Of a stretch of 64,000 bases of DNA, positions 5,896 through 45,383 are shown piece by piece (position 1 is the stretch's first letter; each line of letters opens with the position of its first letter). The notes beneath the pieces are model-generated. The model saw only the letters and a program-made list of their open reading frames with translations, did no database searches and had not been told where the DNA came from. The stretch lies in the IMG/VR virus record IMGVR_UViG_3300044655_001360. One strand, given 5' to 3'. The position numbers and the translations under genes were made by a program. This DNA is from a virus.

Positions 5896-5904
5896 GATAT
5901 TAAT

Positions 5905-27552: not shown

Positions 27553-27553
27553 A

Positions 27554-30098: not shown

Positions 30099-32400
30099 CA
30101 GCTAATACCAATTGCCCATCTTCAACGATCAGTTTTTGATCTGATTCCACTACTGGTTTAACATACTCAGAAACTGTGAAAACGGGTTCGTCATTTTCGA
30201 TAGTAACTTTAACATGACCACCGTTAACCAAATCACCGAATAAAACACGACGACTTAATGGACTTTTCAGTTTAGTATCGATTACTCTTGAAAGAGGTCT
30301 AGCACCCATTTTCTTATCGTATCCAAGTTTAGCTAACCATTCAGCTGTAGTTTCATCGATTTCAATTAAGATATCTTTGTCTTTTAACTGGGCGTTTAAT
30401 TCACCAATGAATTTATCCACGATTTTAAGAACTGTACTATGTTCTAATGGAGCAAACTTGATGATAGCATCTAAACGATTGCGGAATTCAGGTGCAAAGT
30501 ATTCATTAATTGCTTTATCATCTTCACCAGTTCTAGCTAAATCACCAAACCCAATAGTATTACGTTCACTGTCACGAGCACCCAAGTTACTCGTCATAAT
30601 AAGAATACAGTTACGACCATCTGCTTGTTTGCCGTTAGAACCAGTTACAAAGCCATTATCCATGAATTGTAACATGATATTTGTTACATCAGGATGTGCT
30701 TTTTCGATTTCATCGAGTAGAAGAACACAGTGTGGATTTTCTTGCAGTTTAGTAATTAACTGACCTGCGTTGTCTTCAAATCCAACATAACCAGGAGGTG
30801 AACCAATCAATCTTGCCACTGAGTGTTTCTCTTGATATTCACTCATGTCAAAACGAACTAATGGCATGTGCATGTACTTAGCAAGTTGCATAGAAAAATT
30901 TGTTTTACCAACGCCGCTGGGTCCTGGGGCAAGAAAACATCCAATTGGTTTGTTAGGAGCTTTCATACCAGCTTGTGATAAGAAGATTTTATCAACCATT
31001 TTCTCAATAGCTTCGTCTTGTCCAAAGATAACCGATTTCAAATGAGGTTCTAATTCTTGCAAATCCGAACTTTCACGTTGATTCATTGATTCAAGTGGCA
31101 TACCTAGCATTTTAGACAATTCAAATGAAATCTGTTCGATGTCAACTATTTCAGTTACACCTTCAGTTGTCGGATCATCGTTCAATTTGAATCGAGCAGA
31201 AGCACAATCCAAGATATCAATTGCTTTATCTGGAAGTTGCTTGTCATTGATATACTTAACGGACAATTTAACTGCTTGTTCGATAGCTGCTGTAGTAATT
31301 TTCACATTATGATGTGCTTCATAATACTTACGAATACCTTTTAAGATTTTAACTGCCATTTCTGGTGATGGCTCATCCGCAGTAACTCGTTGGAAACGAC
31401 GCATTAATGCACGGTCATTTTCAAAGTGTTTGCGATAATCTTCCCATGTAGTAGAAGCAACAATTTTGATAGTACCTTTAGTTAATAAAGGTTTCAACAT
31501 ATTAGATAAATCATTAGCACTATTACTTGATGCACCAGCACCTTGCATCATATGAGCTTCATCAATGAATAATATAATTTTACCTTTTTTCACTAATGCT
31601 GCCAACACGCCTTTGATGCGTTCTTCAAAATCACCACGATACTTGGTACCAGCTAGTAACGAACTGATATCCAATGAATAAACTTCGTGGTCTTGAATGA
31701 ACTTAGGTACATCTTTCTCGTGAATTTTACGGGCTAGGCCAGCTATAATGGAAGTTTTTCCAACTCCTGGTGAACCGATTAAAAGTGCATTACACTTATG
31801 TCTACGAGCAAGAATCAATTGGATTTCTTCTAACTCGGTTTCACGACCGATAACTGGATCTATTTTGTTATCACGAGCAAGAGCACTCAAGTTAGTGCAA
31901 TACGCATCCAATAACTTATCTGGGTTTTTCGCACTACCAACTGCTTGATCACCCAAGTCACCATCTTCACGATTGGCATTGAAGTGTTTAGCAAACTTTT
32001 CTTTAGAAACACCACCACGATTAAAGAAGTAGTAAGCAAAACTGTTCTTTTCACTTAAGATACTAATGATAACATCAGTAACTTCAGTTGTATTACGACC
32101 ACTGAATACAACTTGAGTAAAGCAACGATGTAATACACGGTCAACCGAATTGGTTTTACGTGGTACGTGATTAGGATCATCGATTACGATTTCAGCCAAA
32201 TTGGTTTTCAAGTAGTGATCTAAGTTCATTTTAATAAACTTAGCATCTGCGCCAAAACCTTCGATTAAGTTATATGAATCTTGATCACTCATAATTGCAT
32301 ACGCAATATGTTCAAGAGTAATATACTCATGACTGTGTTCTTTTGCAATCTCAGTTGCTGCCTCAAAGATTGATTGTAAGTTTTTACTCGGTTCAATCAT
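30076..32400 (-). CDS. clpA: ATP-dependent Clp protease ATP-binding subunit ClpA
   Basis: Clp N-domain, two AAA+ modules (GSPGVGKT, GPSGVGKT, FIDEAH, LLLDEIEKAH), IGF ClpP-docking loop, no long M-domain. Confidence 0.93.
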   Translation of the reverse strand: MIEPSKNLQSIFEAATEIAKEHSHEYITLEHIAYAIMSDQDSYNLIEGFGADAKFIKMNLDHYLKTNLAEIVIDDPNHVPRKTNSVDRVLHRCFTQVVFSGRNTTEVTDVIISILSEKNSFAYYFFNRGGVSKEKFAKHFNANREDGDLGDQAVGSAKNPDKLLDAYCTNLSALARDNKIDPVIGRETELEEIQLILARRHKCNALLIGSPGVGKTSIIAGLARKIHEKDVPKFIQDHEVYSLDISSLLAGTKYRGDFEERIKGVLAALVKKGKIILFIDEAHMMQGAGASSNSANDLSNMLKPLLTKGTIKIVASTTWEDYRKHFENDRALMRRFQRVTADEPSPEMAVKILKGIRKYYEAHHNVKITTAAIEQAVKLSVKYINDKQLPDKAIDILDCASARFKLNDDPTTEGVTEIVDIEQISFELSKMLGMPLESMNQRESSDLQELEPHLKSVIFGQDEAIEKMVDKIFLSQAGMKAPNKPIGCFLAPGPSGVGKTNFSMQLAKYMHMPLVRFDMSEYQEKHSVARLIGSPPGYVGFEDNAGQLITKLQENPHCVLLLDEIEKAHPDVTNIMLQFMDNGFVTGSNGKQADGRNCILIMTSNLGARDSERNTIGFGDLARTGEDDKAINEYFAPEFRNRLDAIIKFAPLEHSTVLKIVDKFIGELNAQLKDKDILIEIDETTAEWLAKLGYDKKMGARPLSRVIDTKLKSPLSRRVLFGDLVNGGHVKVTIENDEPVFTVSEYVKPVVESDQKLIVEDGQLVLADDHADDN

Positions 32401-32431: not shown

Positions 32432-32526
32432 AGTTTAACTTGTTTTCTAGTACAAGTCAAGGTTTGTTTAAAAGTATTAATGTATGTAGCGAATATGTAG
32501 TATACTCTTGATTTTAGAATTGTCAA
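32432..32526 (-). promoter_or_regulatory. Two tandem sigma70-like promoters upstream of clpA
   Basis: TTGACT-N17-TAAACT (32432..32460) and TTGACA-N16-TATACT (32499..32526). Confidence 0.7.
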
Positions 32527-32536
32527 GTGTTTATTG

Positions 32537-32558
32537 GCTCGCTCCTAGCGGAGCTCGC
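32537..32558 (-). repeat. Hairpin element, copy 5
   Basis: Minus strand GCGAG CTCC GCTA GGAG CGAGC. Confidence 0.9.
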
Positions 32559-32569
32559 AAGATTATGGT

Positions 32570-32869
32570 TCAATTATCTTTTAGATCACGAATGGCTCTA
32601 ACACTGTTTATGTTTTCCTTGTATAGAGATGTTTGTATTCCGTTTTGGTTGAAACTTTTACACCAAACATAACTGATATTGTGTTCTGTGAACGACCAAT
32701 ATCGTTTCTTATCAAAATCATTATCTGATTCATATATTCTGTTTAATTCATCTTTAGTGGGTAATCGCCATCCAGTCTTACCATCTATATTAAGAGAAAA
32801 ACAATACAACTTGGCATCAAACCAGTTTAGTCTAATTTCAGTTGATTTAGGTGCTATTTCAAAGTTCAT
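32570..32869 (-). CDS. DUF1566/Lcl-like (C-type lectin fold) small protein, paralogue 1
   Basis: MNFEIAPKS...W.DA..YC..L.I.G..GWRLPT..EL...YWS...VRAIRDLKDN. Confidence 0.75.
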   Translation of the reverse strand: MNFEIAPKSTEIRLNWFDAKLYCFSLNIDGKTGWRLPTKDELNRIYESDNDFDKKRYWSFTEHNISYVWCKSFNQNGIQTSLYKENINSVRAIRDLKDN

Positions 32870-33059
32870 GATGATCATTATCCTCAACCGACCATTCAAT
32901 ATAGTCAATCAAATTTTGAATATCGCTACGTAGGACAGTTGCACGATATTGCCATTGGTTATTCTCGGTTACGAGTTTATCTTCGAGTGATTCAACAGTC
33001 GCTAAAAGATTATCGAGTTTTAACATTAAGATTTGTTTATGTGATAGGGATTTTCTCAT
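32859..33059 (-). CDS. Hypothetical protein
   Basis: 66 aa with a GGAGG RBS, downstream of the promoter. Confidence 0.6.
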   Translation of the reverse strand: MRKSLSHKQILMLKLDNLLATVESLEDKLVTENNQWQYRATVLRSDIQNLIDYIEWSVEDNDHHEL

Positions 33060-33084
33060 GATTGCCTCCGGTTAAGTTTTGCCT

Positions 33085-33112
33085 ATTATAACTAAAAGAT
33101 AATCGATGTCAA
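33085..33112 (-). promoter_or_regulatory. Sigma70-like promoter with the 12-mer box in its spacer
   Basis: TTGACA-tcgATTATCTTTTAGt-TATAAT. Confidence 0.8.
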
Positions 33113-33165
33113 CCATTATTTGCGAGCCCTAATAAAAGAATACCCAGACTAGCTGGGTATTGAAT

Positions 33166-33963
33166 TTAAGTAGCAACTGCTTGTATATGCAGTATTTGAT
33201 CTGGTGTTAAGTCTTTGGGTATCTTGATTTTAACTTTAATCAAAAGATTACCACGACGTTTAGTTTGCATATTGGGTAACCCTTCACCATTACAACTTAA
33301 AACAGTTTCGGGTTGGATACCAGCTGGGATTGTCAGGTTTAGCGTTCTGTCATCTAAGGTATGAATTTCAAGTTTAGTACCTAAAAGAGCATCCCAAACT
33401 GATATGGTTTTTTCAACTACTAGCGCATCACCTTCACGTCTAAACATTCGATGAGGTCTAATGTTAATATTAACAATCAAATCACCAGGAGGAATACCAG
33501 CAATCGAATCATCACCCAGACCTTGATAACGAATCTGCTGACCATGTAACACACCAGCAGGAACTTCAAGTTTAATCGTTTTCTTCTGACCAGATGGGTA
33601 AGCCAAGTCAGCATCAAATGATTTACCAGTTAGCACTTCTTCAAGTGAAACTTCTACATGGATAGAAAGACTGGTATTACGTTGTACGTGATGAAACCCA
33701 TGAGGACCACCGCCATGGAAAAATTCAAATGGATTAAATCCACCATGGAATTGCGGTTCAGGATTATTTGGATCTTGTCCATTATCAACCCGTTGTTTTT
33801 TAACTGGGTCACTTAAGACTTCATAAGCCGTTGCAATGTCTTTAAATTGTTCTTCAGAACCACCTCGGTCTGGGTGATGTTTCATTGCCAGTGAGCGATA
33901 GGCTTTCTTAATTTCATCTGCCGATGCGCCACGTGTTAAACCTAAAATCTTGTAGTAATCCAT
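33166..33963 (-). CDS. dnaJ: DnaJ/CbpA-type co-chaperone (J domain plus C-terminal domain, no Zn finger)
   Basis: DYYKILG...IKKAYR.LA..HHPD, G/F-rich linker, and DnaJ_C motifs (GDL, ALLG, G.GLP). Confidence 0.9.
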   Translation of the reverse strand: MDYYKILGLTRGASADEIKKAYRSLAMKHHPDRGGSEEQFKDIATAYEVLSDPVKKQRVDNGQDPNNPEPQFHGGFNPFEFFHGGGPHGFHHVQRNTSLSIHVEVSLEEVLTGKSFDADLAYPSGQKKTIKLEVPAGVLHGQQIRYQGLGDDSIAGIPPGDLIVNINIRPHRMFRREGDALVVEKTISVWDALLGTKLEIHTLDDRTLNLTIPAGIQPETVLSCNGEGLPNMQTKRRGNLLIKVKIKIPKDLTPDQILHIQAVAT

Positions 33964-33972
33964 ATTCCCAAA

Positions 33973-34587
33973 TTAAGGTAAATGTTTAAGGGCCAATGCG
34001 TAATTCGCATTGCGTTCTTCTAAACCATTAGTACCACCATTGATTTTCTTAGTAATGGTTAGCATATCTTTCTTGTCTGCATGGGTGTTAAGGTCGTGTT
34101 TATCCCAGAACCAGCAAGCAGATTCTAAAGCACCTTCCATGCTACACAGGTATTCACACAAATGATCTACTTCTACACCTAAGTCTTTAGCCATACTAAG
34201 GTAATTTGCTTTACCAGTCAATTGGATTAAACCACGACCACAAAACTTAAAGCCTTCACCAGTAGCTTCTGGACCATTCCCCATTCTACCACCATATACT
34301 TTATTTGCAATCTTTTCTGGTTGCTTTGCATATTGTTTGGCTACTGCTAAGGTAGGAAAGTACTTGGGGAATACTTTAACTAAGGTTTCAGCACGATAGT
34401 TCAAGTTTTCACGTAAGACAGTAAACTGACCACTTTCATGTGAACACTGGGCAATAAATGCAGCAACTCGTAACTTGGTATTGATTTCATACTTTGGTAA
34501 AATCTTATCTAATGCCGCTTTCCATTCATCAATGTGTTTGTTATTTGGTAATATAGCCGCCAAGTCAGCTTTTGTTATTTCATACAT
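33973..34587 (-). CDS. Glycoside hydrolase family 19 (chitinase-like) endolysin
   Basis: FIAQCSHESG, ENLNY, GRGLIQLTGKANY, SACWFW, INGG.NGL.ER. Confidence 0.9.
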   Translation of the reverse strand: MYEITKADLAAILPNNKHIDEWKAALDKILPKYEINTKLRVAAFIAQCSHESGQFTVLRENLNYRAETLVKVFPKYFPTLAVAKQYAKQPEKIANKVYGGRMGNGPEATGEGFKFCGRGLIQLTGKANYLSMAKDLGVEVDHLCEYLCSMEGALESACWFWDKHDLNTHADKKDMLTITKKINGGTNGLEERNANYALALKHLP

Positions 34588-35325
34588 TTAGTCAATCCTT
34601 TTTAATAGCATTGTGTTTGAATCGTTAGTAAACACAAAGTTCTCACCTATTTTGTTGATGTTATAATCACCTAGTACTTTAGTTAACCAAAAGATTTCAC
34701 TCATAGTGGCTTCATCCATTACATAACCTTCAGTACCTTCTAAAATGGCATTCTCTTGTACCAATCGAAGTTTGATTCGATTACCATAAGGTTTTACAAT
34801 AGTGATAACATCGTCTTCTAAGGTAAAATCATCCATTAAAGTCTTTGTAAAGAACTTACGAATGCTTTCAGTTCTGATATCACCTAACATAGCAACGTAG
34901 TCAGCTGGGCTAGACGGAACTATAGCAGTTAAAGTTTCTTCATTGGCTTCGTGTTCAGCTTCATTGGTATGAAACTTGAACTTAAAGTTTTTAATACCAG
35001 TCAACTTAGTAACACCATATAAGATTTCAGTGATATGATTGGCTAAATGAGATTCTCTTGGTAATTCAACGAATACATAGTAATCACCTGCATTCGATTC
35101 ACCAGCACTTACATCAGCATCCAACACATAATGGTATCCTTTTTCAATGAAATCCATTAAGTCCTTGGCAGGTGATCTATCTTTAAGTTGGAAACTCAAA
35201 ACACAAACGTCTTGATCTTCACCCATCTTAGACCGATACGTGTCAATCTCAAAGAATGGGTAAATCATATGTTCTAAATCTAAAGGTCTTAAACCTTCGG
35301 TCAAGTTAGAGTGGTGGAAGTTCAT
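34588..35325 (-). CDS. Conserved-type hypothetical late protein
   Basis: Start taken at MNFHHSNLTEGL; 'ID.Y.SKMG.D.DV.VLSF'. Confidence 0.55.
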   Translation of the reverse strand: MNFHHSNLTEGLRPLDLEHMIYPFFEIDTYRSKMGEDQDVCVLSFQLKDRSPAKDLMDFIEKGYHYVLDADVSAGESNAGDYYVFVELPRESHLANHITEILYGVTKLTGIKNFKFKFHTNEAEHEANEETLTAIVPSSPADYVAMLGDIRTESIRKFFTKTLMDDFTLEDDVITIVKPYGNRIKLRLVQENAILEGTEGYVMDEATMSEIFWLTKVLGDYNINKIGENFVFTNDSNTMLLKRID

Positions 35326-35839
35326 TCTCAGCCTCCATTGCTTGTGTTTCAGCTGGGTCAACATGCGCATTCACGCCCTGATTCATCGTAGCAATATCAT
35401 CTAACTTGTTTTTATCCAAATTAGTATAGCCACGTGTGATATCAGTCATGAGTTTCTTTGGCATGCCAATTTTAACTAGCCAAACTTCTTCGCGGTCAAT
35501 CTTACCTTTACGCGTGCCTGGTCTGATGTCATCAACTTTCTTAATCTTTCGAACTCTTGAAAAATGGGAACTAGCAAACTCAACTTTACACCCATACTCC
35601 ATTAGTCTTAATCCACCAATGGGTTCTGGCATTTGCTTTTTAGGCCACATAAAAGTACATTCAACAAAGTAACGACTTTCATTTGGTCCAACAACTAATT
35701 CACCATCAATCCAGTTATCATAGACATACGTGTCTAATTCATCTATAACCCGTTCGAAATCTTTTAGCAAAGCGAGACTGTTATTAGAACCATAAATCTG
35801 TTCAATATTCTGTATTACGTCTTTAATATCGGTTGCCAT
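35306..35839 (-). CDS. Conserved-type hypothetical late protein
   Basis: 177 aa with a GGAG RBS and CTAAATA at 35857..35863. Confidence 0.6.
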   Translation of the reverse strand: MATDIKDVIQNIEQIYGSNNSLALLKDFERVIDELDTYVYDNWIDGELVVGPNESRYFVECTFMWPKKQMPEPIGGLRLMEYGCKVEFASSHFSRVRKIKKVDDIRPGTRKGKIDREEVWLVKIGMPKKLMTDITRGYTNLDKNKLDDIATMNQGVNAHVDPAETQAMEAENELPPL

Positions 35840-35941
35840 AAATTCTCCTATTGACGTATTTAGGCGAATTTCATTTGGGTAGAAAAGAAAAAGGCTACCT
35901 GAGTAGCCTTTGTTTGTATGGATTATTGATCACACCTGATC

Positions 35942-36208
35942 TCATACGCGTTTAATCTCTAACTGGTTGACAATACCAGATAGGTTAAATAAAGCGATGA
36001 ACTTATCAAAATCAATTTGATTGCTGAATTTGATACTGGTTATATCATCATAGACGCTAGTTCGTAGTTTTGCATTGAAAGCCAACTTACAATACTCCTT
36101 ATATCCGTCTGTTCTTGACCAGCCTTGTGCTTTGGCTGCAGATCTGATTACATTAATGAATTGATCAGAAGTTACATCGTTATATTTGAATTTAATTGTA
36201 ATAGTCAT
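35942..36208 (-). CDS. Hypothetical early protein
   Basis: 88 aa with a GGAG RBS and promoter TTGACA-N16-TATACT at 36240..36267. Confidence 0.6.
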   Translation of the reverse strand: MTITIKFKYNDVTSDQFINVIRSAAKAQGWSRTDGYKEYCKLAFNAKLRTSVYDDITSIKFSNQIDFDKFIALFNLSGIVNQLEIKRV

Positions 36209-36274
36209 GTTGTTTACTCCAGTTAGTTAAGGTGTGAGTAGTATAATATATTATTTGGGAATGTCAAGTGTTTT

Positions 36275-36574
36275 TCAATTATCTTTTATATCTCTCACGG
36301 CGCGTACCCGAATATTATCACTTGATTTACCATGAGCGTATCGACTACCATCTCTAAATGATAAAGCATCAGCAAGTATATTAGTAATCTCAACAGATGT
36401 CCAGTAGTATGAACTTGCGAAATCATTTCCTGATTTGTATATTTCGTTTAATTCTTCATTGGTTGGTAGCCTCCATCCGGATTTACCGCCTATATCAAGG
36501 GAGAAACAATACAAACGGGCATCATCCCAGTTGGATCGGATCTCTGTTGATTTTGGTGCTATTTCAAATTTCAT
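36275..36574 (-). CDS. DUF1566/Lcl-like protein, paralogue 2
   Basis: Family motifs present; promoter TTGACT-N16-TATACT at 36608..36635. Confidence 0.75.
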   Translation of the reverse strand: MKFEIAPKSTEIRSNWDDARLYCFSLDIGGKSGWRLPTNEELNEIYKSGNDFASSYYWTSVEITNILADALSFRDGSRYAHGKSSDNIRVRAVRDIKDN

Positions 36575-36726
36575 GTTATTAACTCCGGTTCTGTTTAAGA
36601 TGCTGGTAGTATAACAACGAAACTAATAAAGTCAATACCTAAAACAAAGAAACCTCAAATAGAAATATTTGAGGTTTTCTAAGAGGTGTGATTTCTCAAA
36701 AGTATTATTTGATTATATTACTGATA

Positions 36727-36747
36727 GCTCGCGCTATTCGCGCTCGC
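36727..36747 (-). repeat. Hairpin element, copy 6 (21-nt variant)
   Basis: Minus strand GCGAG CGC GAATA GCG CGAGC. Confidence 0.8.
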
Positions 36748-36809
36748 ACAAATAGAAATGAAATAGATAATTGAACCCACCAGATTTTGGACGTAACTGT
36801 CCATTTAAA

Positions 36810-37260
36810 AGAATAATACTAAAAGATAATTGAACTATGATTGTCTTATAGATGATGTCGATTACTAAAAGATGATTGAACTATTATAGACTTATAGATG
36901 ATGTTTATATTTGATCTATTATCTTTTAGTTATGATATTCTTATTGATGATCTTATTGATGATCTTATTGATGTGAGTTATTAATGAATTATCTTTTAGT
37001 TCAAAATGTATATGTTCGAATAGATCTAAAATGTATGTGTGCAAATGGAAACAGCTAAAATGTATGGGTTCGTATAGAGTTAAAATGTATGTGCGCGAAT
37101 GGAAACAGCTATAAGGCAATTATCTTTTAGGTTCAAAATGTATGTGCGCGTGGCTTAAGCAGGTAGGATATAAGGGAAGATAAAGTTGAATCTATTATCT
37201 TTTAGATGCTCCTACAATAATAGATTAATTATAGATTAATTATAGATTCTAATAGAAGCT
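36810..37260. repeat. AT-rich iterated-repeat region, candidate replication origin
   Basis: Two ~40-bp direct repeats starting CTAAAAGAT, three short TCTTATTGATG repeats, AAAATGTAT x5 within longer duplicated units, ATAGATTAATT x2, and six 12-mer boxes. Confidence 0.6.
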
Positions 37261-37269
37261 CCTAATACT

Positions 37270-37900
37270 GCGGTATGTGGAGCTGAACATCTTAACCCGA
37301 AAAACTCGGGTTAATTCAAAGCATTCTGGAGGATACATTCTCAAGAAGTTCTGCGTACAAGTATCGCATCACAGCAGCAGTAGAGCATTACAGAGGCGGT
37401 CAGCCGGTACCTCGAGCTCAGTCTTATTAATCTGACGGTGGCTTGCTGGACAACTGCTACCTCATCCAACAAACGCGGGTTTTCTCAACCCATCTTTAGC
37501 CTTTGTTATATCTTTTTGCTGTAACTCAAATGGGTTGTATGAAGGCATATCCCATAACTCATCTGGTGGGGTAGTGAGTTACATCTCCGTTGCTAAATTC
37601 GGAACTTCCATCCCCTATGTGACAAGTAGACTAGGGTTTAAGGGCACGTAATGGTCGCCTGTGCGCGGCTTTCTTAGCAATTCTCTCGTCTTTCTATGTT
37701 CTATCTAGTAATTCGACGAGCAATGGTGGCGGGTGCCTAAAAGATAATTGAAGTAGTATTGAGATGGTCTCTGAAGTTGTAAAAGCGAATAGACTAGGTG
37801 TCGGTAGGGATTTGAGTTGGTCTCTAAAAGATCATTGAGTAATAGACTGGGTGTCGGTAAGCATTTGAGATGGTCTCGGTAAACTGCTTTTGAGTAGAAT
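37270..37900 (-). ncRNA. Candidate large structured non-coding RNA
   Basis: ORF-free, GC-elevated core with many helices whose G.U pairs favour the minus strand. Consensus promoter directly upstream. Ends are uncertain. Confidence 0.6.
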
Positions 37901-37907
37901 ATGATTA

Positions 37908-38019
37908 ATTATAACTTAGATTATGGGGACTGTCAACCTTTTTTCAAGGCTTCTCGTTAACTTCTTTTGGGTAATTTCATAATATGGTTAATTGTACCTT
38001 GTATAGAAATGGATGTCAA
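37908..38019 (-). promoter_or_regulatory. Two sigma70-like promoters pointing into the non-coding interval
   Basis: TTGACA-N17-TATAAT (37908..37936) and TTGACA-N17-TACAAT (37991..38019). Confidence 0.8.
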
Positions 38020-38025
38020 GTGTTT

Positions 38026-38316
38026 TTAATCATCTTTTAGATCTCGAACTGGCATAGTAACTGCTTCGCTTTCGTTTTTGTCCCATTCTATGAAGTGCAT
38101 TCCGTGTGGGCGCACTTGCATTGCATCCAATCCAAGGTCCTCGGAAGTCCAGTACCAATGATTGACAGCTGATGTGACTTGATTTGCGTGAAAATAATCT
38201 ATATCAGGTAAATGCCAACCGGTTTTACCATCGATATTAAGACAAAAACAATAAAACTTGGCTTCATACCAATTCAAATCGGATTTCCAATATTCTTCAG
38301 GTGCTATCTCAATCAT
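38026..38316 (-). CDS. DUF1566/Lcl-like protein, paralogue 3
   Basis: Family motifs; ends PVRDLKDD. Confidence 0.7.
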   Translation of the reverse strand: MIEIAPEEYWKSDLNWYEAKFYCFCLNIDGKTGWHLPDIDYFHANQVTSAVNHWYWTSEDLGLDAMQVRPHGMHFIEWDKNESEAVTMPVRDLKDD

Positions 38317-38576
38317 CTTTTAATTCTCGAGAAAAATCTAGGGTGAATAAGACAAAGTATTCTATTAAATATAGTTGGTTCAATATCTCTAACTGGTACT
38401 AGATGAAATTCGCAAGGACTATGTTGTAAATCATCATTTTGGTACCACATAACATGTTCAATGGCTTTGTATTCGTCAAGAGTTGGCAGTCTCCAACCAT
38501 CACCTAAACAAAAACAATACAAAACAGCATCTACATACGACATTCGGTTTTCTGGTGGTTTTCCTACTTCAATCAT
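38313..38576 (-). CDS. DUF1566/Lcl-like protein, paralogue 4 (short form)
   Basis: DA.LYCFCL..GWRLPT..E...PVRD. Confidence 0.65.
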   Translation of the reverse strand: MIEVGKPPENRMSYVDAVLYCFCLGDGWRLPTLDEYKAIEHVMWYQNDDLQHSPCEFHLVPVRDIEPTIFNRILCLIHPRFFSRIKR

Positions 38577-38832
38577 CGGTTATATCTCGCACTGGTATGG
38601 TATTCGAAACTTCATTTGTATTACTTTCACCCTCGCTATCCCAAAAAAGATAGCATGAACTTCTCAGTTGATTAAATTGCTCCCACAGAGTCACACCAAT
38701 TAAGGCATGTTCTGCGCTAGTCGGTAATCTCCAACCAGTCTTACCATTAATCGTAAGAGAGAAGCAATACATCTTAGCTTCATCGAATGTTAAATCTTTC
38801 CAGTATTTCTCGTTTGCAAACTCAAAGTTCAT
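38569..38832 (-). CDS. DUF1566/Lcl-like protein, paralogue 5
   Basis: Start MNFEFANE; YCFSLTINGKTGWRLPT...PVRD. Confidence 0.7.
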   Translation of the reverse strand: MNFEFANEKYWKDLTFDEAKMYCFSLTINGKTGWRLPTSAEHALIGVTLWEQFNQLRSSCYLFWDSEGESNTNEVSNTIPVRDITDD

Positions 38833-39047
38833 GTTATATCTCGCACTGGGGTTACTGGTAATGGTTCTGGACATTGCTCGTTTAAGTACCAACCTCGTAT
38901 GTTATAATGGTATTGAAATTCTTTGTCAGTCGGCATTCTCCATCCAATCTTACCATCGATGTTCAATGCAAAGCAATATAGCAATGCCTCGTCGTATGTT
39001 AACCAATTTTCCGATGTAGGTGCTATTTCAATTTTTGATTTCATCAT
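38829..39047 (-). CDS. DUF1566/Lcl-like protein, paralogue 6 (short form)
   Basis: IEIAP...YCFALNIDGKIGWRMPT...PVRD. Confidence 0.7.
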   Translation of the reverse strand: MMKSKIEIAPTSENWLTYDEALLYCFALNIDGKIGWRMPTDKEFQYHYNIRGWYLNEQCPEPLPVTPVRDIT

Positions 39048-39340
39048 CTTTTAGATCTCACGGCTCTAACCTTATTTTTACTTTCACGATGGGCATGAAA
39101 CTGGTGGTGAATTCCTCGATACGCGAAGCCTTTTTGAACCCAAATGCTTACATCACCCCATTCTTCGCTAGTCCAATAATAATCATTACCATTGAGAAAA
39201 TCAACCATTATATTCAACTCTTTCTTGGTTGGCAACCGCCATCCTGTTTTACCATCTATACGAAGAGCAAAACAATACAACCTGGCATCATTCCAGTTGG
39301 CTAGTATCTCGGTTTCTTTAGGTGCTATTTCGAATTTCAT
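39044..39340 (-). CDS. DUF1566/Lcl-like protein, paralogue 7
   Basis: Family motifs; ends VRAVRSKR. Confidence 0.75.
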   Translation of the reverse strand: MKFEIAPKETEILANWNDARLYCFALRIDGKTGWRLPTKKELNIMVDFLNGNDYYWTSEEWGDVSIWVQKGFAYRGIHHQFHAHRESKNKVRAVRSKR

Positions 39341-39627
39341 AGTAAATCCCTAACTAACCTAGTTCTAATCTTATCATCAAGTTTATTTGCCTTGTGAAAA
39401 CTGTTTGACAAGAAACTTTTAACCCAGGCGCGTGTGGTATCAATCTCGGTCGAAGACCAATACCAACCATCGAAATCGTTATCGGATTTCCAAATTTCAC
39501 TAAATTCGTTTTTAGAAGGTAATCTCCATCCGATCTTACCATCGATATTAAGAGAAAAGCAATACAATCGGGCATTATCCCAGTTGGTTCGGATCTCAGT
39601 AGATTTTGGTGCTATTTCAAAGTTCAT
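39337..39627 (-). CDS. DUF1566/Lcl-like protein, paralogue 8
   Basis: Start MNFEIAPKS; YWSS...AWV..F...RLVRD. Confidence 0.75.
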   Translation of the reverse strand: MNFEIAPKSTEIRTNWDNARLYCFSLNIDGKIGWRLPSKNEFSEIWKSDNDFDGWYWSSTEIDTTRAWVKSFLSNSFHKANKLDDKIRTRLVRDLL

Positions 39628-39890
39628 AAGATTTCCAAACATTCTACAATTACGTTTTCAGAATCATCGCCTCTAAAGCGATTGCAAGAACGGGCATAAG
39701 ACTCAGCATCTATACGATTGCCATATACCTTGTGGATTTCATTACCAAACTCATTGCAACAAACCCAAACAACATCTAGTTTTTCAGAACGACTCTCTAT
39801 TTCACCCCATTCGGAATCGCCTGCGTTACGATGCGCAGTTAACCCAGTGGAATCTTTGCGTATATAAACAGTATGTTGGTGGTATTTCAT
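39624..39890 (-). CDS. Hypothetical early protein
   Basis: Start taken at MKYHQ with an AGGA RBS, downstream of the promoter. Confidence 0.55.
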   Translation of the reverse strand: MKYHQHTVYIRKDSTGLTAHRNAGDSEWGEIESRSEKLDVVWVCCNEFGNEIHKVYGNRIDAESYARSCNRFRGDDSENVIVECLEIL

Positions 39891-39918
39891 GTTGGTTCCT
39901 ATTAGTTGAGTTTTGCGT

Positions 39919-39946
39919 ATTATAACTAAAAGATAACTGATGTCAA
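39919..39946 (-). promoter_or_regulatory. Sigma70-like promoter with the 12-mer box in its spacer, driving the six-gene DUF1566 array
   Basis: TTGACA-tcaGTTATCTTTTAGt-TATAAT. Confidence 0.8.
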
Positions 39947-39993
39947 GCATATATTACTGTATTGTATTGCATTGTATTCTCGCGAGTAATGTC

Positions 39994-40015
39994 GCGAGCA
40001 CCGATAGGTGCGAGC
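39994..40015 (+). repeat. Hairpin element, copy 7
   Basis: GCGAG CACC GATA GGTG CGAGC. Confidence 0.9.
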
Positions 40016-40118
40016 CATAACCATTATGACAACTCAAATACTACCAAAATGGCAAACTAAATACAAGCAGTGCAGTACTTAACGCAGTTCAAACTTCAAC
40101 CAAAAAGGACTTCAAAGC

Positions 40119-41678
40119 ATGACGAGAAAAAGATCAAGACACACGGATTCACGCGAGTATTTCAACGAAACGCATGAACCAAATACCCCACCCCAAAGCA
40201 AAAAAGCCCGTAGTAAAAACTCCAGTAGTAAACACCAGCAGTCCCATCAACAAAACCACCAGCAACAACCAGACCCACAGCAAATGTCAATCGATCAACG
40301 ATTGGCTGCTAAACGTAAACGGGTTCAAATTCACCCCAAAAACCTTAGCCAAGAACAATACTTAATGGAACTTAACAATCCTAAAAAACAAATTGTTTTT
40401 GCTATCGGGCCAGCTGGTACTGGTAAAGCTCAACCACTGTTTTCAAAAATAAAAATTCCAGGCGGTTGGACTACTATGGGTGATATCGCAGTAGGTGATA
40501 AAGTCACTACTCCTGATGGTAATACCGCTAATGTCGTCGGCTTATTCCCACAAGGTAGTAAACCGACTTATTCAATCACCTTGCACGATGGTCGTTCTAC
40601 TCTAGCCTGCGCTGAACACCTATGGGAAGTATTCCTTGATAATAAACCTGCAGTCATCAATACACTAGAACTACTTAAACTGCGTTATCATGGCTCTATT
40701 ATGCCTTATATTCGCCTACCTAAACACGAAATCATGGACGATGTAGAACTACCAATCGACCCTTTCCAATTAGGTACTATGCTCTTAAAAGACGATAAAG
40801 CTATCCCAGCGGAATATCTCAACGCTTCTCGTTCACAAAAAGTTAAATTACTACAAGGTCTGCTCGATACCAGTATTCATGCTGTCGATTCTGGTAACCT
40901 AGTCTTTACTGCCGGTGCCTTGTTACAAAACTCTGTTGTCTACCTTGTGCGTTCTATCGGTGGTTCTGCTTGTATCAAAGACACTGGTGTTCATATTCGG
41001 TTTAGTATCGTTGAGAGTCCTTTAGAGTTAATGCCGGTGTTGTCAGTTGTCGAATCCGAGGTGGAAGAGTGTCAGTGTATCTTGATCGATAGTGAGGAAC
41101 ACTTGTATGTTACTGATAATTATATAGTTTCCCACAACACGCTAATCGCAACTCAGTGGGCCGTTGATCAATTTAAAGCTGGTAAATGTGATAAGATTAT
41201 TGTAACTAGACCTGCAGTTTCAAACTCAGAATCTCTCGGTTACCTTCCTGGTAATTTGGAAGAAAAAATGCTACCGTGGACTGTTGGTATGTTTGACGTT
41301 TTTTACGAAAACTGGACTAAGGCAGAAGTCGAGTGGTTGATGTCCCGTGACTGTATATCCATTTCCCCGATGTCGTATATGCGCGGACGTACAATGAAAA
41401 ATGCTTGTGTTATTGCAGACGAGGTGCAGTTATGTAACCCAAGCCAAATGAAAATGCTTCTTACTCGAATAGGTGATCAGTCAAAAATGATTTTGACAGG
41501 TGATCTCGCACAAGCAGATAGAGGAGAATTTAACGGGTTAAAAGATTTTATGGGTTTATATGACAAGGCGTCTGTGAATAAGGAAGAATCCCGAATTGCT
41601 ATTGTTAGGTTTAGCCATTCAGATATCGAGCGGCACCCGGCAGTTGCCGAGGTGCTGAAATATTACGGTGAAGATTAG
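40119..41678 (+). CDS. phoH: PhoH-family ATPase containing an intein
   Basis: GPAGTGK|intein|T, TRPAV, LGYLPG..EEK..P, YMRGRT, DE.Q, LLTRIG, TGDLAQ.D, DI.RHP. Confidence 0.93.
   Translation: MTRKRSRHTDSREYFNETHEPNTPPQSKKARSKNSSSKHQQSHQQNHQQQPDPQQMSIDQRLAAKRKRVQIHPKNLSQEQYLMELNNPKKQIVFAIGPAGTGKAQPLFSKIKIPGGWTTMGDIAVGDKVTTPDGNTANVVGLFPQGSKPTYSITLHDGRSTLACAEHLWEVFLDNKPAVINTLELLKLRYHGSIMPYIRLPKHEIMDDVELPIDPFQLGTMLLKDDKAIPAEYLNASRSQKVKLLQGLLDTSIHAVDSGNLVFTAGALLQNSVVYLVRSIGGSACIKDTGVHIRFSIVESPLELMPVLSVVESEVEECQCILIDSEEHLYVTDNYIVSHNTLIATQWAVDQFKAGKCDKIIVTRPAVSNSESLGYLPGNLEEKMLPWTVGMFDVFYENWTKAEVEWLMSRDCISISPMSYMRGRTMKNACVIADEVQLCNPSQMKMLLTRIGDQSKMILTGDLAQADRGEFNGLKDFMGLYDKASVNKEESRIAIVRFSHSDIERHPAVAEVLKYYGED
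40428..41138 (+). mobile_element. Class-3-type intein (237 aa) in the PhoH P-loop, with degenerate LAGLIDADG remnants
   Basis: Starts AQPL; block B HLW, block F CQCI, block G YVT...SHN; +1 Thr. Confidence 0.88.
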
Positions 41679-41689
41679 TTAGTAATAAG

Positions 41690-41712
41690 AAAAGGGCCTT
41701 ACGGCCCTTTTT
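41690..41712 (+). terminator. Rho-independent terminator after phoH
   Basis: AAAAGGGCC-TTAC-GGCCCTTTTT. Confidence 0.8.
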
Positions 41713-41721
41713 GTTTATATG

Positions 41722-41743
41722 GCTCGCACCTATCGGTGCTCGC
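41722..41743 (-). repeat. Hairpin element, copy 8
   Basis: Minus strand GCGAG CACC GATA GGTG CGAGC. Confidence 0.9.
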
Positions 41744-41829
41744 ATGATAAAAAGTATAAATACAAATGAGATTCGCGACTGTAGGAAGTCCAATCCCTCT
41801 AACATTTAATCTTAAAGGAGAATGCCAGC

Positions 41830-43134
41830 ATGAGTATTTATGCACCAGTCAAAAACCCAATTTCATTGGGTACACAATCAAACACTGTACAACCACAACC
41901 AACAACTTTACCCGAAGATAATCAAATCCCAGGGTATGTATATCGACTTACCTGTATACCTACTGGACAGTTTTATATAGGATCTCGTGTTGGGAATATC
42001 ACCGAAAAGAAAATGCCGAAAGAAGACTTTTGGATTAATTATCATACCAGTAGTGAATATGTCACTGAGTTAAGAATACTGTATGGGAAAGCTAGTTTCG
42101 AGTATGAAATCATTTACGAGGATTGTGATAGAGATAAAGTATTTTGGTATGAACAGGAACAAATCCAAAAACATTATAATGACCCATTGATTTTGAATAA
42201 ACAGGTTAATGGATATAAAGATAAACATAAAGGTAAATCTATACCAATATCCACATCAGGAAAACATAGAAAATGGGAAGTTACAGCACCGTGTGGTGTT
42301 GTGTGGGTAGTGAGTAACCTTGAACGATATTGCAAAAATAACGACTTAGATCCAGAAACGATGCGTGGTTTAGCGAGAGGAAAAGGTAAGCAATACAAAG
42401 GCTTTAAGTGCAGACTACAACCCAAATTACCAGTTCCAGCTTGGTATGTTACTATTGACATGGGTGACATTATAAAACCAATCGAACCTATTATGATATT
42501 AGGTAAAGTTCCGGTCATCGATATCAATATCAATCTAGTAGTACCGGAATTGCATGTGATTAAGTTTAAGCATAAGGAAAAGACTGAATCGTTGAGATCA
42601 CAGTATAAGAAATTAACTGCTGCTAAACCAGCAAAGAAACCAAAACCAGTGATACCATACAGCCCATCTGTTGCTAAAGGCTTGGCTAAAAAGAAAGCCA
42701 ATGGAACTCTTAGCTCGGCAGCTATAAAAGGTCAGGCAACACAGAGAAAGAATGGAACACATCAAAATGGTAACAAGGCTACCGTGTTAGCAACTAGAAA
42801 AGTGTGGGAGATTACTGATCCAGCTGGTAATATTACTATTACCAATGATTTGACTGGTTTTTGTAAAGAAAACGGCTTATCAGTTGCTTGTATGCGAGAT
42901 GTTGCATTTAATAGGCAGTTACAACATCGTGGTGGGTGGAAATGTAAAGAATGCGTTGGTGCTAAACCAGCAATTCATTGGGAGATTACGGACCCATTTG
43001 GTAATATAATTACAACTGATAATATAAAACAATTCTGCGAGGATAATAGTTTGAGTGAACCAGGTATGCGAAAAGTTGCACTTGGTTCCGCAAAATCACA
43101 TCGAGGCGGCTGGAAGTGTAAACGATTAGACTAA
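41830..43134 (+). CDS. Free-standing GIY-YIG-type homing endonuclease with three NUMOD-like repeat modules
   Basis: GYVY...FYIGSR and Y.TSS; three 'W.[IV]T.P.G......NL..[FY]C..N.L....MR..A.....GWKC'-like repeats. TATAAATA at 41755. Confidence 0.7.
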   Translation: MSIYAPVKNPISLGTQSNTVQPQPTTLPEDNQIPGYVYRLTCIPTGQFYIGSRVGNITEKKMPKEDFWINYHTSSEYVTELRILYGKASFEYEIIYEDCDRDKVFWYEQEQIQKHYNDPLILNKQVNGYKDKHKGKSIPISTSGKHRKWEVTAPCGVVWVVSNLERYCKNNDLDPETMRGLARGKGKQYKGFKCRLQPKLPVPAWYVTIDMGDIIKPIEPIMILGKVPVIDININLVVPELHVIKFKHKEKTESLRSQYKKLTAAKPAKKPKPVIPYSPSVAKGLAKKKANGTLSSAAIKGQATQRKNGTHQNGNKATVLATRKVWEITDPAGNITITNDLTGFCKENGLSVACMRDVAFNRQLQHRGGWKCKECVGAKPAIHWEITDPFGNIITTDNIKQFCEDNSLSEPGMRKVALGSAKSHRGGWKCKRLD

Positions 43135-43177
43135 AAGATAATGGGGCTCACGCGAGTGGGCCCTTTCTTTATAACAA

Positions 43178-43199
43178 GCTCGCACCTAGCGGTGCTCGC
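43178..43199 (-). repeat. Hairpin element, copy 9
   Basis: Minus strand GCGAG CACC GCTA GGTG CGAGC. Confidence 0.9.
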
Positions 43200-43215
43200 A
43201 ACACACAATAATAAA

Positions 43216-43503
43216 CTAAGCAGAAACAAACCCATGTTCACGTAGCAACATAAGGTCTACGAACTCCCAGCTGATAACCCGATAGAACATAGTCATAGCT
43301 TCACTATGATCGTCGTAGTCTCTTTCCATACCAGTATCATCTTCACCCCAAACGCAAACACGCCATTGGCCATCCCCATTTGTTGGATCTGGACCAGTCT
43401 GTGTAAAGGAAACACAAACAAGTTGCAGGTTATCCCAACCTTTTACTTGGTATGAAGGGTACCAATCATCGTGGGTTGGTTTGTATACGTCAATTCTTTT
43501 CAT
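43216..43503 (-). CDS. Hypothetical protein
   Basis: 95 aa with an AAGGA RBS. Confidence 0.6.
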   Translation of the reverse strand: MKRIDVYKPTHDDWYPSYQVKGWDNLQLVCVSFTQTGPDPTNGDGQWRVCVWGEDDTGMERDYDDHSEAMTMFYRVISWEFVDLMLLREHGFVSA

Positions 43504-43529
43504 AGTGGATTCCTTGTTTTAATTATCTT

Positions 43530-43865
43530 TTATAGGTCACGAACAGGTAATACAAAATACCGATTGTATGGTATATTGTTTTTGCCTGGTATGCAATACG
43601 TTTGGAATCCTTTTCTGAAATCTTGAGTCCAAATGGCTTTGTCGAAATCTGGGTTATCACATACAATATACGGGGTACATGACCAGTAACAAACTGGGTC
43701 AAACCTTTGCACCTGTAATCGATTATCAAGGTATATTTGATTCAATTCATCCATAGTTGGTAGTCTCCAACCTGTTTTACCCTCAATGTTTGCCATACAG
43801 TAGAATCTGGCATCATCGTAGTTTGCTTCAATTACTGCTGACTTCGGTGCTGTTTCAAAGTTCAT
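43530..43865 (-). CDS. DUF1566/Lcl-like protein, paralogue 9
   Basis: Family motifs (GWRLPT..EL, YWS, PVRDL). Confidence 0.75.
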   Translation of the reverse strand: MNFETAPKSAVIEANYDDARFYCMANIEGKTGWRLPTMDELNQIYLDNRLQVQRFDPVCYWSCTPYIVCDNPDFDKAIWTQDFRKGFQTYCIPGKNNIPYNRYFVLPVRDL

Positions 43866-44215
43866 AGGATTTCTCTATATCCGTTCCATTTGTAGATCAA
43901 CCTACCAAACCAACCGACTTCTGGTAGGGTTCTAACTGGGACTACCAAACGTGGAGTATTAAGTTCGTAGTCATTGATAAGTGGCCATGGTAACGACCAA
44001 CAATCACGTAAGATAGTATAACCATCAGCACTCCAACAACCACGGTTAGAAGCCCATTCCTCGTAATCTATGGATTTCGTAATCTTATGCAATTCGTTGG
44101 TGGTTGGTTCACGCCAGCCTACCTTACCGTCAATGTTAAGGGAGAAACAATACATCTTTGCTGTATTTTGTGGCATTTTAACCTGATATTCGGGTGGTGC
44201 TATTTCGATGTACAT
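43862..44215 (-). CDS. DUF1566/Lcl-like protein, paralogue 10
   Basis: IEIAP...YCFSLNIDGKVGWREPT...PVR. Confidence 0.7.
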   Translation of the reverse strand: MYIEIAPPEYQVKMPQNTAKMYCFSLNIDGKVGWREPTTNELHKITKSIDYEEWASNRGCWSADGYTILRDCWSLPWPLINDYELNTPRLVVPVRTLPEVGWFGRLIYKWNGYREIL

Positions 44216-44538
44216 AGTCGGTTAATAATCCGTTTGAAGAGATTTGGAGTTTTGAAAATAGGTTGTTTAGTTCTAATTGGCAAAACCAAACATTTACTAC
44301 TAACCCGTGAACTGGTGCAACCACCTCTGCCTTTTTGTAAGTTAATGTAAACATATCTGAACTCAAGACGAGGAGGTTCACTAGTCCAATAAGGGCCTTC
44401 AAATCTAAATTCAGCAACTGAGAGTTCAAGGAATTCTTTTTCTGTTGGTAAACGATAACCTAGCGTGAAGCAATAGAATACTGCTTCATCGTAGGGTAGG
44501 CGAGTCCAATACTTTTCTGGTGCTATTTCGATGTTCAT
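44200..44538 (-). CDS. DUF1566/Lcl-like protein, paralogue 11
   Basis: Start MNIEIAPEK; YCF...YRLPT..E...YWTS...PIR. Confidence 0.7.
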   Translation of the reverse strand: MNIEIAPEKYWTRLPYDEAVFYCFTLGYRLPTEKEFLELSVAEFRFEGPYWTSEPPRLEFRYVYINLQKGRGGCTSSRVSSKCLVLPIRTKQPIFKTPNLFKRIINRLCTSK

Positions 44539-44554
44539 ACGGTTTTCCTTAATA

Positions 44555-44576
44555 GCTCGCACCTAGCGGTGCTCGC
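44555..44576 (-). repeat. Hairpin element, copy 10
   Basis: Minus strand GCGAG CACC GCTA GGTG CGAGC. Confidence 0.9.
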
Positions 44577-44582
44577 GTTGAT

Positions 44583-44894
44583 TCAATTATCTTTTAGATC
44601 TCTCACTGGTCTAACTCCTAGTATTTCATGTGATTTCCCACCAGTTGAATGATATCCCGTGTCGAAAAGTGAGTAACAATACACGCAGTTATTATCATAG
44701 TCTACCTCAGTAGATGACCAGTAATACCCACCCAGTACAAAATCACTGTCTATTTTTCTTATTGACATCAATTCATCAATGGTTGGTAATCGCCAATCAT
44801 TTTTCCCATCGATATTAAGAGAGAAACAATACAGTTTAGCATCACTCCACGTAAGTCTTGTTTCGGTTGATTTAGGTGCTATTTCAATATTCAT
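44583..44894 (-). CDS. DUF1566/Lcl-like protein, paralogue 12
   Basis: Family motifs; ends VRPVRDLKDN. Promoter TTGACT-N17-TAGACT at 44926..44954 overlaps a 12-mer box. Confidence 0.75.
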   Translation of the reverse strand: MNIEIAPKSTETRLTWSDAKLYCFSLNIDGKNDWRLPTIDELMSIRKIDSDFVLGGYYWSSTEVDYDNNCVYCYSLFDTGYHSTGGKSHEILGVRPVRDLKDN

Positions 44895-44950
44895 GTGATT
44901 CTCGATTGGTTGTTATGTTTCAAGTAGTCTAAAAGATAATGCGAACAAAG

Positions 44951-45247
44951 TCAACTATTATCTTTTAGATCTCTCACTGGTCTAGCGTAACGAATGTGTT
45001 CTTTAAAGCTATGAGATCCCAGTTCGGAATGCCAGTTGTAGCATACTATCCAGTCGCCATCGTCGTTGGAAGTCCAATACCATTCATCGGAACTTTCAAT
45101 GTTTTGTGATTTTAGAAACTCTTGTTCCTTATTGGTAGGTAAACGCCATCCAATTTTCCCATCAATGGTCAACGAAAAACAATATAATTTAGCATCTTCC
45201 CAGTTCAATTCTTTTTGGAATTCAATAGGTGCTATTTCGATGTTCAT
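44951..45247 (-). CDS. DUF1566/Lcl-like protein, paralogue 13
   Basis: Family motifs; ends RPVRDLKDNS. Confidence 0.75.
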   Translation of the reverse strand: MNIEIAPIEFQKELNWEDAKLYCFSLTIDGKIGWRLPTNKEQEFLKSQNIESSDEWYWTSNDDGDWIVCYNWHSELGSHSFKEHIRYARPVRDLKDNS

Positions 45248-45355: not shown

Positions 45356-45383
45356 ATTATACCTAAAAGATAATGGATGTCAA
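45356..45383 (-). promoter_or_regulatory. Sigma70-like promoter with the 12-mer box in its spacer
   Basis: TTGACA-tccATTATCTTTTAGg-TATAAT. Confidence 0.8.

Follow-up and report, generated by a model that had tools for sequence, protein, structure and literature searches.

The subject of this report is a family of 13 small genes found in a 64,000-nucleotide stretch of viral DNA (IMG/VR record IMGVR_UViG_3300044655_001360), which we refer to throughout as the window. All 13 are intact open reading frames (ORFs) of 72-117 amino acids on the minus strand and belong to a single family; they are numbered W01 to W13 by rising coordinate, and metagenomic relatives are denoted L001 onwards and G001-G003. 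A first-pass annotation had proposed 13 minimal DUF1566/Lcl genes here with a shared EIAP...YCF...GWRLPT..E motif. Each of the 13 is present where it was placed, and a profile built from them retrieves exactly these 13 in the window (E-values from 9e-44 to 2e-16). The core of the motif is borne out by the alignment, in which E..A.....A..YCF.L...GWRLP...E...W...R are the invariant or near-invariant residues. Identities, template scores and ratios of nonsynonymous to synonymous differences (pN/pS) reported below refer to the window and its relatives.

Four transcription units carry the 13 genes, and all of the genes and promoters listed here lie on the minus strand. The first unit runs from a perfect TTGACA-16-TATAAT promoter (33085..33112) through a 66-aa leader ORF without a family match (32859..33059) to W01, a long form at 32570..32878 with a probable start at 32869 (profile E-value 9e-44). 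The second consists of W02, another long form (36275..36574; E-value 2e-40), behind a promoter-like TTGACT-16-TATACT site with a TG extension that matches the consensus at 10 of 12 positions (36608..36635); a terminator-like hairpin lies just upstream of this site at 36650-36677. The third unit comprises seven genes, which follow a perfect consensus promoter (39919..39946): a leader ORF (39624..39890, its start placed downstream of the promoter), W08, a long form (39337..39627), W07 (39044..39340; 88% identical to its orthologue in L002), the 72-aa short form W06 (38829..39047), the short form W05 (38569..38832), the short form W04 with a basic, hydrophobic C-terminal tail (38313..38576; E-value 2e-16) and finally W03 (38026..38316; E-value 8e-35). 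The fourth starts at a further perfect promoter (45356..45383) and contains W13 (44951..45247; orthologues 78-96% identical), W12 (44583..44894), the tailed copies W11 (44200..44538; E-value 5e-26, orthologues 88-97% identical) and W10 (43862..44215; orthologues 95-99% identical), W09 (43530..43865; orthologues 94-95% identical) and a closing 95-aa ORF with no family match (43216..43503).

The early impression of translational coupling behind sigma70-like promoters is well founded. Gene junctions include five ATGA overlaps and two longer ones (8 and 16 nt), and W08 is joined to its leader ORF by a further ATGA. The exact consensus TTGACA-N16/17-TAYAMT occurs eight times in the window, always on the minus strand, against 0.26 expected, and seven of the eight sites fall between 32.5 and 45.4 kb. 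This enrichment is confined to the exact consensus, as looser promoter-like sites are not enriched across the window (55 versus 49.6 expected). Related loci repeat the layout of a promoter followed by an array. A 12-mer, AAAGATAATTGA, is found at 52 window sites when up to two mismatches are allowed, against 17 expected. In several family genes it supplies the K-D-N-stop end; it lies at gene ends such as 32570-32581, 36275-36286 and 44583-44594 and persists through frame changes (W07); its inverted form, ATTATCTTTTAG, fills the spacer of the three perfect array promoters (33095-33106, 39929-39940 and 45366-45377). The 12-mer looks like an operator or recombination motif that is selected at the DNA level.

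Against the Pfam profile PF07603 (Lcl_C/DUF1566; gathering cut-off 34.9 bits), four of the 13 proteins score above the cut-off (W12, the best match, at 55.4 bits, W01 at 43.2, W02 at 41.3 and W08 at 38.6). W07 (32.9), W09 (32.6) and W13 (28.9) fall below it at 29-33 bits, and W03 (17.4), W05, W06 and W10 reach 17-18 bits through the N-half alone. PF07603 does not match W04 or W11. The hidden Markov model check places four copies in Lcl_C outright and links all 13 through their own profile (E-value 2e-16 or better). Structure prediction agrees with the C-type-lectin fold that had been proposed. The AlphaFold2 model of W12 (72 homologues; predicted local distance difference test, pLDDT, 87.5) has as its top match in the PDB the C-terminal domain (CTD) of the Legionella pneumophila protein Lcl (8q4e; TMq 0.78, E-value 3e-6, 28% identity), followed by snake-venom and animal C-type lectins and many other C-type-lectin folds. 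The model of W06 (pLDDT 93) is a compact version of this fold whose nearest structures are poxvirus A33, Link modules and the Lcl-CTD (TMq 0.71), all with weak E-values. In both models the fold takes up the whole chain including the N-terminal strand, with no spare segment for an anchor. The G-W-R-L-P residues and a Glu six residues past the Arg are invariant or nearly so, a spacing equal to that of Arg338 and Glu344 in Lcl (PMC11162425). YCF, GWRLP and the Arg...Glu pair match the buried core and salt bridge of Lcl (PMC11162425), so the fold has the constant half as its scaffold. All 13 ORFs are genuine protein-coding genes, paralogues that each encode a minimal C-type-lectin-fold domain standing alone.

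Variation is concentrated in the middle of the proteins and is not evenly spread, as it would be in neutral decay: among 105 distinct family members, column entropy rises from 1.88 bits in the N part to 3.14 in the middle and falls back to 1.46 in the last strand. In the alignment of the 13 the N part and the last strand are conserved and the middle is unalignable, and three short forms (W04, W05 and W06) lack most of the variable region. The expectation that all copies end in [VP][VI]R[D] holds for most of them, with the exception of W07, which ends in VRSKR through a frame change, and of W10 and W11, which read VRT and continue into a tail. Extra C-terminal tails of about 20 residues, basic and hydrophobic (F.R[IL]I-like), follow the last strand in W04 (38313-38380), W10 (43862-43925) and W11 (44200-44270), all on the minus strand, and overlap the start of the next gene. 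Copies contain 1-5 Cys residues, one of them invariant (in the YCF motif) and none forming a conserved pair, so that the disulfide pairs of classical Ca2+-dependent C-type lectins are missing from the family; the Lcl-CTD has no disulfide bonds either, and it lacks the EPN and QPD motifs for calcium and sugar binding (PMC11162425). Even the invariant Cys is not strictly required, since the W08 orthologue in L002 (10294-10584) has Ser in its place (YSF for YCF). No signal peptide or membrane segment was found in any copy, in keeping with the first reading, as no 19-residue stretch is hydrophobic enough (maximum grand average of hydropathy 1.04). Ten copies scanned with the PADLOC anti-phage defence models gave no match at E-values up to 0.01. 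A general role as DNA mimics or in anti-restriction by charge was considered and rejected, given that the isoelectric points of the copies span 4.5-9.5.

The C-half had been described as different in every copy. This is the case among paralogues and does not extend to orthologues, in which the C-half is conserved like the N-half. For nine of the 13 genes, orthologues exist in other assemblies (L002, L007, L010, L011 and L019), with full-length identities of 78-100%. When the differences are pooled, pN/pS comes to 0.20 in the N-half and 0.26 in the C-half, which indicates that the genes are under purifying selection and are not in decay or subject to hypermutation. W12 recurs at 100% identity in two further assemblies, in one of which the neighbouring genes differ by 4-12%. 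For W06-W08 and W13 compared with L002 and L007, synonymous divergence (pS) is higher in the N-half (0.207) than in the C-half (0.128), and orthologue identity dips periodically at codons 10-30 of each gene. No clean donor tract for gene conversion was found among the N-halves; ectopic exchange among paralogues may occur.

In the relatives, a subset of copies is rich in C-ending (NNC) codons, which make up about 50% of the final 35 codons and about 15% elsewhere in the gene, and these NNC-rich copies share a scaffold that is invariant at the DNA level (TGG TCC TCT ACT GAG ... GCC TGG nnT CAG ... AAG ... TAC GTT AGA GCC). Taken together, the NNC-rich ends and the invariant scaffold predicted a template repeat of a diversity-generating retroelement (DGR), with AAY at the variable codons. 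Three all-AAY patterns had no match in viral contigs, where the scaffold pattern returned known copies only; in metagenome contigs the scaffold pattern retrieved the template. Contig L048 holds the 3' end of a target, a bAvd gene, the all-AAY template repeat NNGNNAWNQNFNNGNQNNNNKNNGNNYVRAT and a reverse transcriptase (RT) with an IGNLSSQ motif. The template spans exactly the variable half of the family, from FVGNNYWSSTE to YVRAT. An identical Avd is encoded on at least 23 contigs, including the start of a 271,688-bp scaffold and L054 of sequencing run SRR27430846, a run that also contains window-identical contigs; L054 begins exactly past the stop codon of the target, which is where heterogeneity of the variable region would break an assembly. 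Active targets show 0-1 changes at 76-77 non-adenine template sites versus 19-22 at 47-50 adenine sites (Fisher p 1e-9 to 1e-11 for cognate targets), the Avd-adjacent variable regions differ in every sample, and the targets carry at their 3' end the homing sequence GCCACCCGGAGATCA, which gives the protein end RRSTI. The L048-type cassette is an active DGR of this phage clade, carried by some of its members. That the C-terminal segment of this fold is what DGRs diversify, which had been offered as established, thus agrees both with the literature (PMC5758913) and with a template laid over the variable half in the relatives. The 271-kb phage that bears the DGR has only two perfect variable regions, most of its array genes being of the window type. 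At the start of this scaffold (L049:1-10752) the DGR lies beside genes for a sulfotransferase, a 905-aa glycosyltransferase/methyltransferase fusion and a 2-oxoglutarate-Fe(II) oxygenase, and a gene there for a two-domain Lcl_C protein of 330 aa supplies, in its C-terminal variable region, the second perfect target.

Every copy that keeps the scaffold was scored against the template for non-adenine identity, Fisher p and NNC fraction, and the scores form an unbroken series from 100% to 58% non-adenine identity along which the NNC fraction drops in parallel, from 0.6 to 0.16. At the top are the active targets that end in RRSTI (99-100%, NNC 0.55-0.61), followed by minimal-type genes that end in RSIP, RSTV or RDII (92-99%, NNC about 0.55) and by further copies with various ends (78-90%). 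Two copies with the window-type end RAIRDLKDN and the 12-mer box stand at 85-86% (p 7e-4 and 1.6e-3; NNC 0.41-0.48), and the most eroded copies at 58-68% (NNC 0.14-0.27); among the latter is W08 (62%, p 0.53, NNC 0.19). Fixed copies outside the window, at 78-99%, retain the adenine-specific footprint. In L012, L001 and L006, minimal-type N-halves are joined to variable regions that are 96-97% template-like. Five footprint-bearing minimal genes could be paired across contigs, with variable regions 99-100% identical even where the N-halves differ by 2-5%, and the identity of their variable regions indicates that these copies are already fixed.

Compared with the template, all 13 window genes are 50-73% identical at non-adenine sites, and changes fall on adenines and on other bases alike; in W01, for instance, the alignable 122 nt are 60% identical at non-adenine sites. 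They therefore lack the pattern of an active target, in which differences are confined to template adenines. The variable region of an active target also changes between samples, and here the orthologues of nine of the 13 genes are 78-100% identical with the C-half included. The homing sequence GCCACCCGGAGATCA is absent from the 3' ends of the window genes, which read GTTAGAGCCATTCGTGATCTAAAAGATAATTGA or variants (RDLKDN). A search for an RT and a template repeat, which the first-pass annotation had recommended, turned up no second, template-like copy of any C-half in the 64-kb window, where no RT-like ORF was noticed either, and yielded the DGR in the metagenomic relatives. The 13 are frozen paralogues that are not currently hypermutating. 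W01 and W12 are each directly followed (about 32525-32560 and 44545-44580, minus strand) by a GC-rich hairpin that has tandem G.A mismatches and the loop GCTA (GCGAGCNCC GCTA GGNGCGAGC); a different hairpin stands behind the active DGR target of L048 and L051.

Comparison of close relatives reveals how the arrays change. L001 is 95-97% identical to the window in nucleotide sequence over flanks of about 10 kb, and in place of the single W01 it has seven tandem copies (4054-6529); the C-half of W01 finds no match in any of these, and six of them bear the DGR-type NNC footprint. In L002, W13 is joined directly to phoH and the segment 41743-44957, with a SegE-type endonuclease gene, the 95-aa ORF and W09-W12, is missing, while in L007 and L010 W12 is missing and other copies are present. 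These differences show that arrays change by whole cassettes between close relatives, and the SegE-type endonuclease may have carried neighbouring cassettes along. Diversification by duplication and recombination, as first proposed, is only part of the account, for the variable half is also spanned by a DGR template.

The window belongs to a new, uncultivated T4-core jumbo phage. Its family-B DNA polymerase shares 49% identity with the enzyme of the Pseudomonas jumbo phage PA5oct group, and the other products include tail-fibre and baseplate proteins, a clamp loader, a dCMP deaminase, a GH19 lysozyme, ClpA/B-like, DnaJ-like and PhoH-like proteins, a SegE-type endonuclease and two ART-PolyVal ADP-ribosyltransferases. 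Megablast against cultured phages gave no close relative of the window, and the family itself has only three weak protein matches in the cultured-phage collection, inside a 196-aa early-region protein of Pseudomonas phages. Seventeen related loci were found in IMG/VR. Two of the relatives (G001 and G002) are complete 372-kb genomes with terminal repeats and 47 profile matches each, and an 88-kb fragment (G003) has 42. The 271,688-bp scaffold carries T4-type portal, prohead protease and Gp23 genes and an array of 12-14 family genes, which lies between the portal gene and the genes for the prohead protease and the major capsid protein (Gp23). In a collection of 5.8 billion proteins, every homologue of the family is small and has no name. 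Elsewhere, according to an exhaustive profile search, the domain is common as tandem repeats within giant bacterial proteins; fused forms of the family were rejected, as the seemingly longer homologues are merely about 190-206 aa and contain the same domain alone.

Several neighbours of the arrays deserve a brief description. An island on the plus strand (40119..43134) holds the PhoH-like gene and the SegE-type GIY-YIG endonuclease gene, both recognized by Pfam; the PhoH match within the 519-aa product is split, and the internal segment, ending ...VSHN, looks like an intein. The two adjacent ART-PolyVal genes (26165-27612, minus strand; E-values 1e-22 and 2e-16) are candidates for modifying host proteins, like Alt and Mod of T4. 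W01 is flanked, also on the minus strand, by genes for a 774-aa ClpA/B-like double-AAA ATPase (30076-32400) and a DnaJ-like co-chaperone (33166-33963). The clp gene is 53% identical in the complete relatives and lies at least 100 kb from their arrays, and for this reason the idea that the family serves as an adaptor for the neighbouring ATPase was dropped. Two genes between W01 and W02 match PHROG 'virion structural protein' families. Finally, an ORF-free stretch behind the perfect promoter at 37908-37936 contains a full-length match to the Rfam model RF01718, Polynucleobacter-1 RNA (37519-37669, minus strand; 68.3 bits against a gathering threshold of 37), which may point to a freshwater Polynucleobacter-type host or habitat.

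We think it probable, if some way from certain, that the window genes belong to a clade-wide family of minimal lectin-fold proteins that is also the target family of the DGR, that the 13 represent its frozen end with cassettes exchanged among phages, and that their products would be early intracellular binders. In this scheme adenine mutagenesis would give new binding surfaces to any copy with the 3' homing sequence (RRSTI) intact, and loss of that sequence would fix the variant. Fixed copies would then be held by purifying selection as their codon usage drifts to the A/T-rich norm of the genome, the 13 of the window being the eroded end of the series, and whole cassettes are gained, lost and swapped between related phages by recombination. 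The sequences themselves show the fold and the family, the DGR and its template, the graded footprints, the stable orthologues and the turnover of cassettes. The window copies would on this account descend from DGR-written ancestors, and we infer that host-type promoters drive their early synthesis and that the proteins work in the infected cell as a panel of binders with fixed specificities. Early action inside the cell is favoured by the host-type promoters, the coupling, the lack of an export signal or anchor, and neighbours that function in replication and host modification.

A number of observations weigh against this interpretation. The window copies have no residual NNC excess (about 0.19 in the tails and 0.16 in the heads), and, keeping no footprint, they may never have been written by a DGR. 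G001 and G002, in which no RT and no template were found, nevertheless carry a copy with a fresh footprint; for this to be so, the DGR must have been lost recently, the copy must have been transferred, or the element must act in trans. The direction could also be the opposite, with the DGR-targeted lineage derived from the minimal family. With regard to function, the array of the 271-kb relative is located inside a head module, which would suit a virion-associated role, and known phage DGR targets are receptor-binding proteins (PMC8144416).

The missing footprint makes duplication with ordinary divergence the main rival account, in which a DGR later captured one sub-lineage and the 13 were never written by a retroelement. 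We judge this to be unlikely, albeit a serious contender. It fits the absence of an NNC excess or adenine bias in any window copy, the short forms that lack the variable-region segment, and the N-halves of the cognate 176-aa and 330-aa targets, which differ from those of the minimal family. It is harder to reconcile with an unbroken series in which identity and NNC fraction fall together, with minimal-type N-halves attached to nearly template-like variable regions in L012, L001 and L006, and with the significant footprint kept by two copies that have the RDLKDN end and the 12-mer box of the window genes.

A role in the virion, either as proteins packaged in the capsid and injected like the internal proteins of T4 or as detachable adhesins or decoration proteins directed at structures on the host surface, strikes us as doubtful. 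The head-module position of the array in the 271-kb relative and the two PHROG structural matches flanked by W01 and W02 speak for such a role, as does the normal function of phage DGR targets in host attachment (PMC8144416, PMC10743442). On the other hand, every array, in the window and in the relatives, lies behind sigma-70 consensus promoters, the fold leaves nothing of the chain to serve as an anchor, and the window arrays are set among replication, nucleotide-metabolism and ADP-ribosyltransferase genes. Prohead proteases of the T4 type cleave according to an L/I-x-E rule, which the N-terminus of the family does not fit. As for the suggestion that the 13 are DGR targets being hypermutated now, their membership of the target family and the presence of a DGR in the same sequencing run (L054, SRR27430846) are far outweighed by 50-73% non-adenine identity without adenine bias, missing homing sequences, orthologues under purifying selection that are 78-100% identical across samples, and a W12 that is unchanged in two assemblies while its neighbours differ, and we regard it as highly improbable.

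To return to the reading we prefer, of a DGR target family whose frozen end lies in the window, it can be carried one step further. Although speculative and in our estimation rather a long shot, the DGR might act as a gene nursery, in which bare lectin-fold cassettes receive new binding surfaces and the useful variants are uncoupled from the retroelement, duplicated and exchanged until a phage holds some 50 fixed binders, expressed early and directed against host defence or takeover targets. If true, this would amount to a virus-encoded, germline-stored repertoire of intracellular binders. The graded series itself gives a concrete, testable idea of how a large multigene family could arise from a mutagenic retroelement. 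The accepted view of phage DGR targets is that of virion tips through which host range is altered, with one or two genes to an element as a rule. Should the present proteins act inside the cell, they would form a new class of phage host-takeover or counter-defence factors and, at 72-117 aa, also a natural library of very small, disulfide-free binding scaffolds.

That DUF1566 is a DGR target, also in short proteins consisting of DUF1566 only, is already established. DGR proteins with DUF1566, DUF823 or Fib_succ_major domains have CLec2 variable regions and constitute 'category d' of Wu et al. 2018, with Legionella LdtA as the prototype, and about half of the category d targets are short, with the DUF1566 domain alone (PMC5758913). 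The family resembles this class in its Pfam domain, in having the C-terminal part as variable region and in being written, in the relatives, by a cassette of target, Avd, template and RT. It differs from the class in that the 13 depart from the template beyond adenines, lack the homing sequence, stay constant from sample to sample, carry neither a lipoprotein nor a secretion signal, and belong to a family with about 47 copies per viral genome versus the usual one to few. In the literature searched we found no report of tens of anchor-less copies per phage genome, of such a family in a jumbo phage or of a series from written to frozen copies.

The best structural match, the Lcl-CTD of L. pneumophila (8q4e; PMC11162425), shares the W-R-L-P...E core and the lack of disulfides. 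Lcl, however, is a secreted trimer with a collagen stalk that binds sulphated glycosaminoglycans (PMC11162425), whereas the phage proteins are bare domains of 72-117 aa, without the first strands of the Lcl-CTD and with unrelated surface loops. Mtd of Bordetella phage BPP-1 and other phage DGR targets, tail-fibre tips and the tentaclins (PMC10743442) among them, are likewise phage-encoded C-type-lectin folds with a DGR-written binding surface. Mtd and the tentaclins possess additional, virion-anchoring domains, in contrast to the window genes, which encode none, lie outside the tail module and have host-type promoters.

The polymorphic internal-protein loci of T-even phages consist of small, variable genes whose 5' ends are conserved; repeated promoter or terminator motifs flank these genes, and related phages swap them as cassettes. 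The present arrays are similar in their conserved 5' ends, repeated bracketing motifs and cassette exchange, yet they encode an unrelated fold, and no motif for capsid targeting or cleavage was recognised in the family. A survey of 224 cultured jumbo phages recorded no DGR-type lectin (FGS) domain (PMC7824862), which means that this biology has so far been visible in metagenomes only. The same source describes a zinc ribbon present in about 35 copies in Bacillus phage G (PMC7824862), which parallels our family as one small domain amplified to tens of genes in a giant phage; the fold is a different one, and the expansion described here is tied to a diversity-generating retroelement.

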